From Escherichia phage moskry, in sequence record MN850651.1: 64,000 nt of DNA. One strand, given 5' to 3'. The stretch's first letter is position 1. The number at the start of each line of letters is the position of its first letter. Positions 1,466-55,668 of this stretch are shown here, in pieces. Position numbers and translations under genes: made by a program. Below the pieces are notes generated by a model. That model saw nothing but the letters and a program-made list of their open reading frames with translations, was not told where the DNA came from and did not search any database.

Positions 1466-1481
1466 AAAATTTAAATGGCTC

Positions 1482-2030
1482 TTAACGAGCCCATTTAATG
1501 ATTTCTGTAATCAAATAATTACGTTCGCTTGCATTAAATCCTATAACTTTGTTAGCACCATCATGATTAAGTAATTGATACGTTTGGATTTTGTTATGAA
1601 TTGCAAACTCTTCAAAATATGAAATGACTGTATTAAAACCGAATGAAGACAAAGTAATAAGGTCGTCTTCAAAACTTTCAGTCATTTCGTTACGTGTTAA
1701 AATAATTGTGAACACATCATGGTTTTGGCAAAGACGAACATAATCCTGTTCATAAACATCAAGAACCGAGTCCGCATCTTGTCGAATACGTCCATAAACC
1801 CAGTTACTAATATATCCACGGTCTAACAGATAAATCTTAGTAGGGTCTAAATAATTCAACATCGTTTCGAAACAGCCGACTTCATTTCGAGACTTAACAT
1901 CGAAACGCCCATCAACTGTTCGTTTAGGGAAATCAATCTTTACATATCTTTCACTAATTTCCATTATGTCATTAATGAAAGTTGTTTTACCAGCATTATC
2001 CGGCCCGTCTACTAAAATAATTTTAGCCAT
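1482..2030 (-). CDS. P-loop nucleoside/nucleotide kinase-like protein (dNK/dNMP-kinase fold), unknown substrate
   Basis: 182 aa; Walker A VDGPDNAGKTTF; LDRGYISNW resembles the ERS/DRS motif of deoxynucleoside kinases; distinct from gp1. Confidence 0.55.
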   Translation of the reverse strand: MAKIILVDGPDNAGKTTFINDIMEISERYVKIDFPKRTVDGRFDVKSRNEVGCFETMLNYLDPTKIYLLDRGYISNWVYGRIRQDADSVLDVYEQDYVRLCQNHDVFTIILTRNEMTESFEDDLITLSSFGFNTVISYFEEFAIHNKIQTYQLLNHDGANKVIGFNASERNYLITEIIKWAR

Positions 2031-2031
2031 T

Positions 2032-2931
2032 TTATTCCTCGATTACGACATCTTCGTATTTAGGTATATTATACGGTGAAGAAATTAAAGCATTAAAGTA
2101 GATGAACTCACCAAGACCTGGATGGAATACTTCTTCAGGATTTTCGAAATATTGAATCTTCGGACGTCCTTTAAGAATTTGATAGTACTCAGTTTTAGTT
2201 GGATTAAAAATTCGAATCAGCGCTTCTTCAGGATACTTATTTCTGTCGAAGCTATTATTTGGATCGGTTATATAAAGCGGTTGACCTAATTGAATTGCGC
2301 ATTCAACCACTTGTTCAAAACGATAACACGGGTCACTAATTCGAAATGGATGAAAAATACCATCTAGATGAATAGGAGCCAAATCACCTACAAGACGCTG
2401 CATGATGGAAGGACGTATAACTTTCTGAGTTACGATAATCTTATTACCATCTGCACCTGCGTTAACCAGCACTTCTTTTTGACGTTCATTCAACACAGTA
2501 GTTTGAAGTGAACTATTAACTGACAACATATCGGTTTTTAAGAATTCGTCAATATAAAAACGTGGTTTATTAGGGTCTGCCGTGATATTGAAATTGAATT
2601 CTACATCAAAAGCGCCGTCATAACCAGTGATATCTGTTATTAGAAAATCACAATCATAATAAGCAATTAATGAATCAACCACAAATTCATTTTCAGACCA
2701 GAAATATTTACGAGTGTTATACGCGTTATCTTTATACCATAATGGAACAAACTTAAATTCCGGGAAAAGACGTTCACATTCTTTAATATCAGATGCATTA
2801 CGTGGATATGTAATCACATCACCTGGATTAGCACGGTGCAAATGAAGTTGGAAGTTGCCATCCTTAAGGATAGCATACTGTCCAGTTTCATAAGACCGCA
2901 TACTCAAAATAGGTACGCGGAAAATAGCCAT
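2032..2931 (-). CDS. Hypothetical protein in the T4 beta-gt position; candidate DNA sugar transferase
   Basis: 299 aa ORF, stop/start abutting gene 42 homolog; no resemblance to recalled T4 beta-gt. Confidence 0.55.
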   Translation of the reverse strand: MAIFRVPILSMRSYETGQYAILKDGNFQLHLHRANPGDVITYPRNASDIKECERLFPEFKFVPLWYKDNAYNTRKYFWSENEFVVDSLIAYYDCDFLITDITGYDGAFDVEFNFNITADPNKPRFYIDEFLKTDMLSVNSSLQTTVLNERQKEVLVNAGADGNKIIVTQKVIRPSIMQRLVGDLAPIHLDGIFHPFRISDPCYRFEQVVECAIQLGQPLYITDPNNSFDRNKYPEEALIRIFNPTKTEYYQILKGRPKIQYFENPEEVFHPGLGEFIYFNALISSPYNIPKYEDVVIEE

Positions 2932-3647
2932 TAGTCAAGAAATCCTTTAACATAATCAAAATCACGTTCAAACACATGGGCACTTACCATGGTATGAGTA
3001 TAATCACCAACTTCTACACCACATTCGTTAGCGATATAATGAAGTAATTTTCCTTGGAGATAAAAATCCAACTGCATAACAACAGCACAGTTCTGAGAAC
3101 GCATATGACAGTGGGTATAAAGCTTACCATCACGAATATAATAAGTCACTGAGTCAGTACATGGATATTCAAGTGTTTCGTCCGAATCAAGCAAAGCCTG
3201 ATCAGAACTTTCTAGAATTTGGAACACAACTCTTCGAGAGTTAGGTTTCTCTTTAAGTTCTTTTAGAAGAGCCGGTAATTGGGCCGCAATGCGAGGACCG
3301 TAGAAAGTGTTGAAGTTTGCAGGCAAAGCGTCTGATTTAGGTTTAGAAATAAATTTAGCGACATTAGGATATGCCTTAAACGCTTCTTCTGCATCAGTAC
3401 CACCAGAAATCATAAACTTCCAGAAGTCTTCGGCATATTCATAAGAGATGCGGTTAATACGTGGGTCGGTCATTTTGAATGATGATGGATTGTCAACAAC
3501 TACTGTCATGGACCCGATTTCATTACAACGTCCAATACGAGAATTAGTTACGAATTCGGGGTTTTCTAAAATTTCACGATTGACTGCTTTAAATGCGGTT
3601 TGAAAATCTGCGGCTTTGATATATTTCATTGTGTTATGTTTTCCCAT
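2931..3647 (-). CDS. 42: dCMP hydroxymethylase-like enzyme (thymidylate synthase superfamily)
   Basis: 238 aa; catalytic Cys context YPCTDSVTYYIRDGK and HMRSQN parallel T4 gp42 CTNTVQYLIRDKK / NMRSND. Confidence 0.75.
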   Translation of the reverse strand: MGKHNTMKYIKAADFQTAFKAVNREILENPEFVTNSRIGRCNEIGSMTVVVDNPSSFKMTDPRINRISYEYAEDFWKFMISGGTDAEEAFKAYPNVAKFISKPKSDALPANFNTFYGPRIAAQLPALLKELKEKPNSRRVVFQILESSDQALLDSDETLEYPCTDSVTYYIRDGKLYTHCHMRSQNCAVVMQLDFYLQGKLLHYIANECGVEVGDYTHTMVSAHVFERDFDYVKGFLD

Positions 3648-3689: not shown

Positions 3690-3929
3690 TTATTTGAATT
3701 TCTTAGCAATGTTGATATAACGTAAAGCTTCAGAATCTATACTTCCAAGAACACTATGAAGGAATGCATCAGCGTAGTATTCTAGTTGAACAGGTTCTTT
3801 AATCGCTTTAGCCGCTTTAGTTTCAAACAGGCCCATAAGGGCCTTTTTAAGAATTTGTTCGTTGCTATTAATTTTTATGGTCAAAATCTCTTCATTAAGT
3901 TGGTGGTTAAAAGTTTTTCTAGAAATCAT
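3690..3929 (-). CDS. Small hypothetical protein
   Basis: 79 aa ORF co-directional within the modification block. Confidence 0.45.
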   Translation of the reverse strand: MISRKTFNHQLNEEILTIKINSNEQILKKALMGLFETKAAKAIKEPVQLEYYADAFLHSVLGSIDSEALRYINIAKKFK

Positions 3930-5104
3930 TCCGGGTACCTCAAAGCGTCGTCAGAGTTAGTTATATCAATAATAGATATAGAATTTTCTGATAACCCATT
4001 TTTAGATAACTGGCGTTTATAATATCTTTCACAATATGTACACGTCGTCCCGCAGATTTCATTAGCACAATCGAAATCTGGATGTCTGAACCACCTTTTT
4101 TCTAAAAAGCCGTCTAACAAAGAGGTTTCAATATTTACCGTATGTGAAAACTCGGTCTCATTTTCAAGAGTGAAAATGGTCTCTAAAGGCTTCCACAATT
4201 CCAACAAATTACCTTCAAACTTTTCAGAAGCATAAGCTTCAAGAACTTTCAAAATGTAGTCGGTGCTACCTGTACGTCCCGAAACTTTAAATTGAGTGAT
4301 ACCAATATCGTTATAAAGTTTCAAATCTTGGGGACGAACAAAACGAGTTCTCAACCAGTTAAATGGGTCTGTATCACGAGCTTTAATACAGTGCTGCATA
4401 GGATATCCGTTTAAGGATTTAGCATCATCAGCCGTAACATCAGTACTATGGAAAATATAGCAAGAGTCACGATAGCTACAATGTGTTGTATACCCTTTAC
4501 CAGCATTAGAACAGAACTCATTTACAAGAACTTCAAATATTATATTGTTCTTATTGCAAAACTCTGCTGCACGCTTCAGGAAAGAAACTGAACGGTTCTT
4601 ATGAATTCCACAGCAGACCTTTTTGATATTATATTGGTCATGCAAGTATTTGATTTGAGTTACAGCATCGACATGTAGAATTGTTGAAACTTCAATCTCA
4701 ATGTCTTTATTGACTTCACGAACAATTTCCATAACAACAGGGTTAGCGATAGTAATACGCCATACGCCTATTGACCAAAGATACTGAACATAATCCTGAA
4801 TAGCTTTCTTCTTCCACTCAACTAGTTCTCTTTTTGAACCAGGATTTATCGTGTTGAGTGTATAGTTAAAGCAAATACCTAATTCGTTACAACGTTTAAC
4901 GTAGTCTTCTAACATCTTTTTGTCAACGTCAGGAAGCCTAAAATCAGGTCTGGCTGCTACAAAAGCCATTTCTCTTGTAGAGCCGTATACTTCGTTTATC
5001 AAGCTATTAGGATAAGTTTTATTGAGCTCTACGATTTTATCAAGAAGAGCTAAATCAAAATTCGTTCCGATTTTAAAAGTATTCATTTTTTTTTTGCATC
5101 TCAC
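3926..5104 (-). CDS. Hypothetical protein with C-terminal Cys cluster; candidate sugar transferase or accessory enzyme
   Basis: 392 aa; C-terminal CANEICGTTCTYCERYY; no family recognised by eye. Confidence 0.55.
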   Translation of the reverse strand: MRCKKKMNTFKIGTNFDLALLDKIVELNKTYPNSLINEVYGSTREMAFVAARPDFRLPDVDKKMLEDYVKRCNELGICFNYTLNTINPGSKRELVEWKKKAIQDYVQYLWSIGVWRITIANPVVMEIVREVNKDIEIEVSTILHVDAVTQIKYLHDQYNIKKVCCGIHKNRSVSFLKRAAEFCNKNNIIFEVLVNEFCSNAGKGYTTHCSYRDSCYIFHSTDVTADDAKSLNGYPMQHCIKARDTDPFNWLRTRFVRPQDLKLYNDIGITQFKVSGRTGSTDYILKVLEAYASEKFEGNLLELWKPLETIFTLENETEFSHTVNIETSLLDGFLEKRWFRHPDFDCANEICGTTCTYCERYYKRQLSKNGLSENSISIIDITNSDDALRYPE

Positions 5105-5145
5105 GTTAATTGATGCGATGGTTTTTGCAGGTCTTACTTAAATTA

Positions 5146-5547
5146 TTATAGATTAGGTTTATATGATTTAAATGTTTCGAATTCGCCTTTATTCATAAGA
5201 GCTTTGAATTCGTCAGGACGCATAGCTTTGTCGTCGATAATCCAATCATATACTGGTTTATGTGTTAGCAAATTATGGTACTTCAAGCCAATGTTTGCTA
5301 AGTTCTGAATCAGACTTGGGAGAATGTCAATTGCTATACGACCAGGACCTACTGACTTCATACCGCGAGCAGTGTAAAGCGTTATGGTATGCCCTGCATC
5401 ATACAGGGCATTAATGGCAGACACCATTTCGACGTCTGGTTTGAAGTTCACGTAATCACGATTGTTATTCCACTCTGTTATACAATCATCGACATCAAAA
5501 CAAAGATTAAGCATGTTTTCTACACGGTGCATTAGATTCGTTCCCAT
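5146..5547 (-). CDS. HAD-superfamily-like small phosphatase (putative sugar-phosphate phosphatase)
   Basis: 133 aa; motif-I-like FDVDDCIT, motif-II-like ITLYTARG, Lys and IIDDK downstream. Confidence 0.5.
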   Translation of the reverse strand: MGTNLMHRVENMLNLCFDVDDCITEWNNNRDYVNFKPDVEMVSAINALYDAGHTITLYTARGMKSVGPGRIAIDILPSLIQNLANIGLKYHNLLTHKPVYDWIIDDKAMRPDEFKALMNKGEFETFKSYKPNL

Positions 5548-54933: not shown

Positions 54934-55668
54934 TTACCTTAAGATTGTTTCAATTTTAGAATAAAGCTCTTCTAAAGAGCCGTCGTTTGTAATAACTAAA
55001 TCGCCTTCTTCAATAGGCAACCCAGCTTCTGTAATATGTTTATCGGTGGATTCCGTACCAGAGCGAACCACATGAATAACTGTAGCACCCATCGCTCTAG
55101 CGGTTTCCATTTCATGGACTTGACGTGTATCGGTTACGACATAGTAATCGAAATCACTTCCAATATAATCCATATAGTTTAATGCAAAAAGCTTAACCCA
55201 ATACATACGGTCAAATAAATTAACGACAACATCCGTACCGAGGGCTTGCATAAGACGGCGGATTGACCATGTGTCGTTGATATTATTTATAGCTTCACGC
55301 AGGGCTTCATATGGTTTAATATCTAGATACGAATATCCACCTTCTAACGATGATAATACTTTAACATTATTAATCGGTAAATATTGACTTTGTAAATAAA
55401 TTAGCGCTTCTTCCATTAATTCAATAACATCCAACTTATTGATATTTAATGGCGTTTCACGGTCGTATCCAACACCTTCAAAGTATTCATATTTCAACTC
55501 AGTGAATACATCAGGGTTTTCAGCATGTTTACGTCCCCAGGCTATTGCTAGAGCGTCTTTAATCGGATAGGCCAATTGGTATTTTACGGATTTAAAGTTT
55601 GAATTGATGTAATCAGCAGTGGTGTCTTTACCACTACGTTTGATGCCGCTTAAAAAGATTAGCTCCAT
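54934..55668 (-). CDS. 1: Deoxynucleoside monophosphate kinase gp1
   Basis: 244 aa; MELIFLSGIKRSGKDTTADY...WSIRRLMQALGTD...ITNDGSLEEL matches T4 gp1. Confidence 0.95.
   Translation of the reverse strand: MELIFLSGIKRSGKDTTADYINSNFKSVKYQLAYPIKDALAIAWGRKHAENPDVFTELKYEYFEGVGYDRETPLNINKLDVIELMEEALIYLQSQYLPINNVKVLSSLEGGYSYLDIKPYEALREAINNINDTWSIRRLMQALGTDVVVNLFDRMYWVKLFALNYMDYIGSDFDYYVVTDTRQVHEMETARAMGATVIHVVRSGTESTDKHITEAGLPIEEGDLVITNDGSLEELYSKIETILR

Follow-up and report, generated by a model that had tools for sequence, protein, structure and literature searches.

Bacteriophage T4 gp1 is a deoxynucleoside monophosphate (dNMP) kinase (PF21448; 1DEK) which phosphorylates hydroxymethyl-dCMP (hm-dCMP), dGMP and dTMP. 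Our subject is another kinase gene, at positions 1482..2030 on the minus strand of a 64,000-nucleotide stretch of Escherichia phage moskry (sequence record MN850651.1; this whole stretch is called the window below). An earlier reading of the letters alone, here the original prediction, had proposed that a P-loop kinase sits inside the DNA modification block of this phage in addition to gp1, and that it may phosphorylate a modified nucleotide or a sugar. Both kinases are indeed there: the 182-aa product of the first open reading frame (ORF) is of the nucleoside monophosphate (NMP) kinase class and has the Walker A sequence GPDNAGKT, and a gp1-type dNMP kinase is encoded elsewhere in the window (Table 1). 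Judging by its sequence and its genomic company, this additional kinase is probably a dedicated 5-hydroxy-dCMP kinase and the partner of a gp48-type synthase. T4 gp1 probably has the same job in its own pathway, which is to take a modified dCMP to the dCDP level.

Among described enzymes, thymidylate kinase (TMPK; EC 2.7.4.9, PF02223; Mycobacterium tuberculosis (Mtb) 1G3U, vaccinia A48R 2V54 and human 1E2D) is about 15% identical to the RB69-type kinase, as we call the protein after its ortholog in phage RB69. It differs from TMPK in having neither the P-loop Arg nor the Arg-rich lid, in the invariant acidic pair of Asp residues in its lid, and in its thymidylate synthase (TS) homolog partners, which are of the dCMP type with none of the dUMP type. 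A likeness of another kind is to 5-HMUDK, the 5-hmdU DNA kinase of thymidine hypermodification pathways (Lee et al. 2021), which is also a phage P-loop kinase beside a base-modification pathway based on a TS homolog. 5-HMUDK phosphorylates the base in DNA to give a leaving group; the RB69 product needs none, and the RB69-type kinase has what appears from its sequence to be a dNMP-type pocket. Also among the closest known systems is YorR of the prophage SPbeta (2AXP/3KB2), an uncharacterised P-loop protein. Of the three proteins that Lee et al. 2026 list as "nucleotide kinase", that of the Pootjesviridae, seen through P10VF gp179, is only a distant relative of the RB69-type kinase.

The window comes from a Mosigvirus (RB69-like), and its first 8 kb are 97.6-98.8% identical to phages of the RB69 group (RB69, PhAPEC2 and Bas46). 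The pathway of this group has recently been described by Lee et al. 2026 (PMC13326640). The base in RB69 DNA is arabinofuranosyl-arabinofuranosyl-5-hydroxycytosine and not arabinosyl-hmC, and the mature base bears no phosphate. RB69 gp48 was shown to be a flavin-dependent 5-hydroxy-dCMP (5hodCMP) synthase, and RB69 gp159, the gp1 ortholog, converts 5hodCMP to 5hodCDP in vitro. In E. coli with gp48 and gp159, and without gp45, 5hodC enters the DNA. The arabinose-5-phosphate kinase step was assigned to the C-terminal domain of gp52:53/AfhE. Table 1 of the same paper lists RB69p045, DLP3_078 and RL38J1_214 as "nucleotide kinase" on the basis of structure searches, and the paper gives these three neither an experiment nor a role in its pathway text. 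A survey from 2021 (PMC8056088) described RB69p045 as a thymidylate-kinase homolog that is "presumably" involved in modification. ORF045c does not come up in Thomas et al. 2018, and a phage transposon-mutagenesis preprint in which Bas46 and LC53 were mutagenised contains no gene-level data for either phage. The existence and class of the gene are already published (2021 and 2026), and the novelty of the kinase as such is low because it was listed as a putative nucleotide kinase in both years. What is new here is a two-way, quantitative association with one type of synthase across virus lineages, the lack of dUMP-type partners, a map of the conserved residues and a set of exceptions to the pairing.

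The gene and its fold

The DNA-modification cluster lies between uvsX and gene 43, and the kinase gene is at its end nearest to uvsX. Its orthologs are RB69ORF045c (NP_861735), DLP3 gp78 and Bas46 bas46_0140, the last of which carries the database label "putative thymidylate kinase". The start codon comes 1 nt past the stop of the glycosyltransferase gene, with GAGG just ahead of the ATG. The protein is 100% or 98-99% identical across about 150 Mosigvirus phage genomes, 343 phage records contain a homolog, with identities going down to 35%, and the ratio of nonsynonymous to synonymous substitution rates (dN/dS) is 0.06-0.17 among close genomes and about 0.2 among distant ones. Given so many near-identical copies and homologs and such low ratios, this is a real, conserved gene under purifying selection and not a chance ORF.

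Scans of Pfam and NCBIfam gave no family above threshold for the ORF: there is no match to PF02223 at E<=0.1, TIGR00041 yields 15.6 bits where 83.25 are required, and PHROG 761 is the only family-library match. The ORF is neither a T4 gp1-type dNMP kinase (PF21448) nor a deoxynucleoside kinase (dNK, PF01712), and comparing it directly with the gp1-type kinase of the window revealed no detectable sequence similarity. Matches from a single-sequence search of the PDB (such as RecA and thioredoxin) were discarded as P-loop noise. A profile of 19 homologs matched TMPKs in the PDB weakly (E=0.003-0.08), and hhalign aligned the family profile to Mtb and human TMPK with a probability of 80-86%. The two TMPK sequences used for this were confirmed to be identical to those in the PDB before the alignment. 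The fold is of the NMP-kinase type and closest to TMPK.

The alignments place D11 on the P-loop Asp (Mtb D9, human D15), F34-P35-K36-R37 on the FPRY/FPER of TMPKs, D70-R71 on the DRY motif (Mtb D94 R95) and S75-N76..Y79 on Mtb S99-N100..Y103. The kinase therefore has both the P-loop GxxxxGK[ST] with the Asp by which TMPKs bind the dNMP 3'-OH and the DR...S-N-x-x-Y arrangement of a TMPK, although the third residue of its DR motif is Gly and not an aromatic as in the DR(Y/H/F) of TMPKs. In established TMPK structures the counterparts of D11, FPK(R), D70-R71 and S75-N76..Y79 hold the dNMP in the acceptor site by its 3'-OH, its phosphate, the edge of its base and its 2'-position. In a set of 40 diverse family members G9, D11, G14, K15, D70, R71 and D122 are invariant, and K36, S75, N76, Y79, R113, D123 and N133 are nearly so.

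TMPKs of class I have their catalytic Arg in the P-loop and those of class II have it in a basic lid, and neither has a counterpart in the kinase. N12 occupies the P-loop Arg position, and the lid at residues 113-125 is not Arg-rich, with a single conserved Arg (R113) and an invariant acidic D122-D123 pair instead. The two hhalign alignments conflict over residues 41-58, and only one of them puts E50 at human R76, the thymine-O4 Arg (Mtb R74). The confidence of the AlphaFold2 (AF2) model is low at residues 37-47. Since the segment that should contact the base aligns ambiguously and model confidence is low, the base specificity cannot be read from the sequence.

Coupling to 5-hydroxy-dCMP synthases

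The kinase, with its TMPK-type P-loop, DR and S-N-x-x-Y motifs, is coupled tightly and independently of lineage to Asn169-type (5hodCMP) synthases. These are TS homologs with Asn at the position of E. coli ThyA D169 and Asp at that of N177; we verified the ThyA numbering on the MG1655 thyA sequence and took the meaning of positions 169 and 177 from Lee et al. 2026 (PMC13326640). In the window this signature lies 0.9 kb from the kinase, well inside the 10 kb that we allowed for an Asn169/Asp177 partner.

Cultured-phage records number 343 for the kinase and 377 for the gp48-type synthase. The two counts are the same in Escherichia (176), Acinetobacter (57), Shigella (15), Enterobacter (9), Serratia (9), Proteus (7) and Yersinia (6) phages, and Rhizobium (22), Tenacibaculum and Sphingomonas phages are among those that account for the additional synthase records. 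As the counts per genus match, phages without a gp48-type synthase appear to be without the kinase as well. The syntenic locus of T4 reads uvsX-segA-beta-gt-42-imm-imm.1-43, and a control search of it from uvsX to 43, carried to E<=10, found no family member. The place of the kinase varies by genus but is always within the cluster, save for the Morganella phage MP1 considered below, whose locus lacks the synthase, glycosyltransferase and sugar genes. It adjoins uvsX in RB69 and Thanatos-2. In JS98 it has the phosphatase on one side and the synthase on the other, and in Klebsiella and Proteus phages it is flanked by the phosphatase and the U32 gene.

The kinase family was defined from alignments A1/A2, and the kinase-side scan of IMG/VR used alignment A3. 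The family is a small one: in an HMMER scan of 1.84 billion representative proteins, no more than 318 relatives passed E<=0.001, and 45 passed E<=1e-10. Starting from the synthase, with the Asn169-synthase alignment as query, we found 64 Asn169-type loci in IMG/VR. A kinase matching the family hidden Markov model (HMM) was present within 10 kb in 59 of these (41 strong and 18 weak matches), and three of the five loci without one are at contig ends. As a rule the synthase is followed by one gene of the size of a glycosyltransferase and then by the kinase. Starting from the kinase, all seven informative contexts of deep members (profile E<=1e-9) carry an Asn169/Asp177 synthase; P0065 was left out of this count, the gene being at a contig end. 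The TS homolog with the MRS-x-N...D signature adjoins the kinase or is separated from it by one gene, as seen directly for six of the seven (P0058, P0060, P0044, P0052, P0067 and P0076) and by way of its glycosyltransferase for P0048. Several of these contigs are not T4-like, and in some the synthase and kinase genes overlap. There are also contigs in which the kinase is next to the synthase and no sugar-activation genes were detected.

More distant relatives extend this picture. Among 66 non-T4-like loci from the kinase-side scan, 40 have a TS homolog within 10 kb, about 30 of them adjacent or overlapping. The TS homologs at the distant loci are all Asp169/Asp177, as in the T4 gp42 dCMP hydroxymethylase (RSND....D), and BLAST found no RB69-type AfhE, SIS, HAD or glycosyltransferase homologs within 10 kb of them. 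A search of the kinase loci with E. coli ThyA gave zero Asn177 (dUMP-type) TS homologs, and we consider this search sensitive enough because gp48 itself finds ThyA at E=2e-14. With partners that are Asp169/Asp177 or Asn169/Asp177 and never Asn177, the broader kinase group tracks cytosine-modifying TS homologs, and the narrower family that contains RB69ORF045c tracks the 5-hydroxylating ones.

Rhizobium phage P10VF (Pootjesviridae) keeps the order of synthase, glycosyltransferase and kinase with a far more distant TMPK-like kinase. This protein, gp179, scores 20.9 bits against the family HMM and 23.6 bits against the Pfam TMPK model, for which the cut-off is 27. Another gene of this phage, P10VF_175, is annotated as a dNMP kinase and has no Pfam match, so a second kinase in the Pootjesviridae is unconfirmed.

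Probable role of the kinase and competing explanations

Because the kinase almost always travels with a 5-hydroxy-dCMP synthase, 5-hydroxy-dCMP is its most likely substrate. In the pathway we propose, gp48 would convert dCMP to 5-hydroxy-dCMP, and the kinase, acting as a divergent dNMP kinase of the thymidylate-kinase fold, would use ATP to take this to 5-hydroxy-dCDP. A nucleoside-diphosphate kinase would then make the triphosphate for incorporation by the phage polymerase, and arabinose would be attached at the DNA level. We infer both the substrate and the direction of the kinase reaction. A modified nucleotide, as originally predicted, remains the best-supported substrate, though it would be 5-hydroxy-dCMP and not the hm-dCMP that had been named, in keeping with the RB69 chemistry of Lee et al. 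2026 (PMC13326640).

Several points weigh against this role. One significant problem is that a second kinase is not strictly required, as gp159 phosphorylates 5hodCMP and gp48 together with gp159 suffices in E. coli. Others come from the protein itself: it has neither of the Arg features by which TMPKs catalyse, in the P-loop or in an Arg-rich lid, and its lid is acidic, the kinase stays under the Pfam and TIGRFAM cut-offs, and its base-contact helix (41-58) aligns ambiguously with TMPK and so does not show recognition of cytosine. Additionally, the pairing has exceptions in both directions. Morganella phage vB_MmoM_MP1 has an intact kinase with all the motifs between pol and uvsX (5005-5535 of the locus), at a locus with no synthase, glycosyltransferase or sugar genes, and this phage was reported to be without any TS homolog (PMC8056088). 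Tenacibaculum phages PTm5/PTm1 and one other Asn169 locus, for their part, have no family kinase within 8-10 kb.

Two kinases may well be kept either because a nucleotide that is unstable and prone to deamination calls for more specificity or flux, or because the kinase is inherited within a mobile module of synthase, glycosyltransferase and kinase. The chemical lability of 5-hydroxycytosine nucleotides may make a dedicated high-flux kinase important in vivo, and the fusions of relatives to MBD4-type glycosylase domains that we describe below are consistent with a concern for deamination products. The trio, for its part, looks like a module which may have taken the place of gene 42 and beta-gt when the T4-like backbone already had gp1. 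A stronger claim would be that the kinase is not redundant with gp1 at all. It would then be a mechanistically unusual TMPK variant, with its acidic lid and no catalytic Arg, in an ancient core module of synthase, glycosyltransferase and kinase for O-glycosylated 5-hydroxycytosine DNA, common to unrelated virus families, with a job in vivo beyond that of gp1 (obligate channelling of the unstable 5-hydroxy-dCMP, rejection of dCMP, or some chemistry besides the plain step from NMP to NDP). We give this stronger claim a small chance of being right.

Each of the rival explanations is weaker than that of a 5-hydroxy-dCMP kinase, and we take them in falling order of probability. The kinase could be a general (d)NMP kinase, or one of another specificity (dTMP, dUMP, dCMP, UMP or CMP), which boosts supply, for example of UTP for UDP-arabinose or of dTTP. 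The TMPK fold, the many database labels of "thymidylate kinase", the presence of the kinase without a synthase in MP1 and the fact that gp1 already handles 5hodCMP all lean this way. We nevertheless regard it as unlikely, since there is no such kinase at the T4 syntenic locus, the counts per genus track the gp48-type synthase, the partner is an Asn169 synthase in every informative case and a dUMP-type (Asn177) TS homolog in none, and the kinase adjoins the synthase even in contigs with no detectable sugar-activation genes.

It is quite unlikely that the kinase serves a later step or another modified nucleotide, complementing gp1 by taking 5hodCDP to 5hodCTP (and so bypassing the host Ndk) or by salvaging 5-hydroxy-deoxycytidine or glycosylated nucleotides. 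The conserved motifs of the acceptor site are those of an NMP site, which does not fit, although such a task would explain why both kinases are kept when gp1 does the first step, and RB69-type Straboviridae do have a gp1-type and a TMPK-like kinase together.

That the protein is a weak or inactive kinase which works as a binding partner, either channelling the product of the synthase or regulating the synthase or glycosyltransferase, is suggested by the missing class I and class II catalytic Arg of TMPKs and the acidic lid. It is suggested also by the tight translational coupling to the glycosyltransferase in the window and the overlap with the synthase gene in other viruses. About 40 diverse members however conserve K36/R37, the Walker A Lys/Thr and R113 along with the DR motif, as an active kinase would, and with the strong purifying selection this makes a non-catalytic partner very unlikely.

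Lower still is the probability of a kinase that acts at the DNA level, like the 5-hmdU DNA kinases, and phosphorylates 5-hydroxycytosine, or else a sugar, within the polymer. In its favour, a fusion to an MBD4-type glycosylase domain, a DNA-binding and base-flipping module, is seen in many relatives, but the fusion is explained equally well by a shared role in the handling of modified cytosine. No such domain is present in the RB69-type protein, the mature RB69 base is free of phosphate and the motifs match a dNMP pocket. Finally, a sugar or sugar-phosphate kinase of UDP-arabinofuranose synthesis, the other substrate class of the original prediction and one suggested by the sugar-activation genes of the cluster, is hardly credible, given that the TMPK fold and dNMP-site motifs are those of a nucleotide kinase, that relatives follow TS homologs even where no RB69-type AfhE, SIS or HAD genes were detected within 10 kb, and that the arabinose-5-phosphate kinase step belongs to gp52:53/AfhE.

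Neighbouring genes, variant clusters and implications

From uvsX onward the window has the kinase, the glycosyltransferase (gp46:47), the TS homolog (gp48), a small ORF, the U32 gene (gp50), a HAD phosphatase (gp51), the nucleotidyltransferase with an APH-like kinase (gp52:53), another small ORF, an arabinose-5-P isomerase (gp55) and the DNA polymerase. The positions of the main features are collected in Table 1.

Table 1. Positions of the kinase, its motifs and related genes in the window; the last four rows are fusions that lie outside the window
Feature	Position	Strand	Remarks
Thymidylate-kinase-like P-loop kinase gene, 182 aa	1482..2030	-	ATG 2030..2028, TAA 1484..1482
Walker A / P-loop GPDNAGKT, residues 9-16	1983..2006	-	G9, D11, G14, K15 invariant in 40 diverse members
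DR + base/sugar-site motif LDRGYISNWVY, residues 70-79	1794..1823	-	D70, R71 invariant; S75, N76, Y79 at least 90%
Lid-like segment R113-N-E-M-T-E-S-F-E-D122-D123-L-I	1656..1694	-	D122 invariant; R113, D123 at least 90%; AF2 confidence low
Terminator-like hairpin GGCTC-GTTAA-GAGCC + T-rich tail	1477..1491	-	Consensus scan; overlaps kinase stop, just before uvsX
Glycosyltransferase, RB69 gp46:47 (arabinosyltransferase 1), 299 aa	2032..2931	-	phrog_3891; assignment from Lee et al. 2026 (PMC13326640) Table 1
5-hydroxy-dCMP synthase, RB69 gp48, TS homolog	2931..3647	-	Pfam PF00303; 98-99% identical to RB69-group proteins
Synthase active-site signature MRSQN....D	3066..3095	-	Alignment A5; Asn at E. 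coli ThyA D169, Asp at N177
Bifunctional nucleotidyltransferase + APH-like sugar kinase, RB69 gp52:53, AfhE-like, 561 aa	5532..7217	-	Pfam NTP_transferase + weak kinase families
gp1-type dNMP kinase, RB69 gp159 ortholog	54934..55668	-	Pfam PF21448 DNMK, E=9e-97
Kinase-MBD4 fusion, P0058/L006	8001-9074		Outside the window
Kinase-MBD4 fusion, P0060/L093	1446-2390		Outside the window
Kinase-MBD4 fusion, P0067/L099	5454-6425		Outside the window
Kinase-MBD4 fusion, P0076/L100	6001-6951		Outside the window

The terminator-like hairpin is suggestive by its position only, as the region has no more sites of this kind than chance would give. By analogy with HY126 AfhE, gp52:53 can be regarded as the sugar kinase of the cluster, following Lee et al. 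2026 (PMC13326640). The RB69 reference splits ORF046c/047c and ORF052c/053c, for which the same authors blame sequencing errors, and in the window the glycosyltransferase and the nucleotidyltransferase/kinase are each one intact ORF. The U32 gene (3926..5104, minus strand) matches the Peptidase_U32 family with a Pfam E-value of 8e-11. The U32 proteins RlhA and TrhP are needed for C5-hydroxylation of a 23S rRNA cytidine and of tRNA uridine. To find a family with known roles in C5-hydroxylation inside a 5-hydroxycytosine cluster is a striking coincidence. The gene is present in the Mosigvirus, Klebsiella, Proteus and Thanatos clusters, and absent from those of JS98 and most Acinetobacter phages.

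Many relatives of the kinase are fusions of 310-370 aa in which the C-terminal part of about 150 aa is an MBD4-type HhH-GPD glycosylase domain. A profile of this domain matches the PDB at E=6e-20, and the motif G-x-GKY-x-x-D-S with the catalytic Asp is conserved. A possible role is the repair of deaminated modified cytosine (T:G, 5hmU:G or 5hoU:G). Xanthomonas phage Xp12 has 5-methylcytosine DNA and a reported 5-methyl-dCMP kinase activity. It carries a stand-alone MBD4-like domain (L091 4914-5396) two genes upstream of its Asp169/Asp177 TS homolog. We dropped Xp12 as an activity anchor for the family, there being no family kinase within 5 kb.

Some variant clusters have other enzymes besides. 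A locus from Logan SRR33230366 (L100 4421-10212) combines an Asn169 synthase, a methyltransferase-like protein, a kinase-MBD4 fusion, a GT4 glycosyltransferase and a radical SAM/SPASM protein, and may make another hypermodification derived from 5-hydroxycytosine. In GCA_034680565.1 a gene of the FMN-reductase family (L006 9068-9613) directly follows the kinase-MBD4 fusion and adjoins an Asn169 synthase with a long N-terminal extension. An FMN reductase beside the synthase fits the flavin-dependent hydroxylation reported for gp48. Tenacibaculum phage PTm5 (L092 5716-8654) and locus L153 have an Asn169-type synthase with an AfhE-like enzyme, and a histidine phosphatase replaces the HAD phosphatase.

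The kinase family would be a useful marker, as it predicted an Asn169 synthase in every informative case, and the kinase is a candidate enzyme for the biotechnological production of 5-hydroxy-dCTP. If the kinase is a dedicated 5-hydroxy-dCMP kinase, it would complete the nucleotide branch of the 5-hydroxycytosine-arabinose pathway and would explain the transfer of this pathway between virus families as a unit of synthase, glycosyltransferase and kinase.

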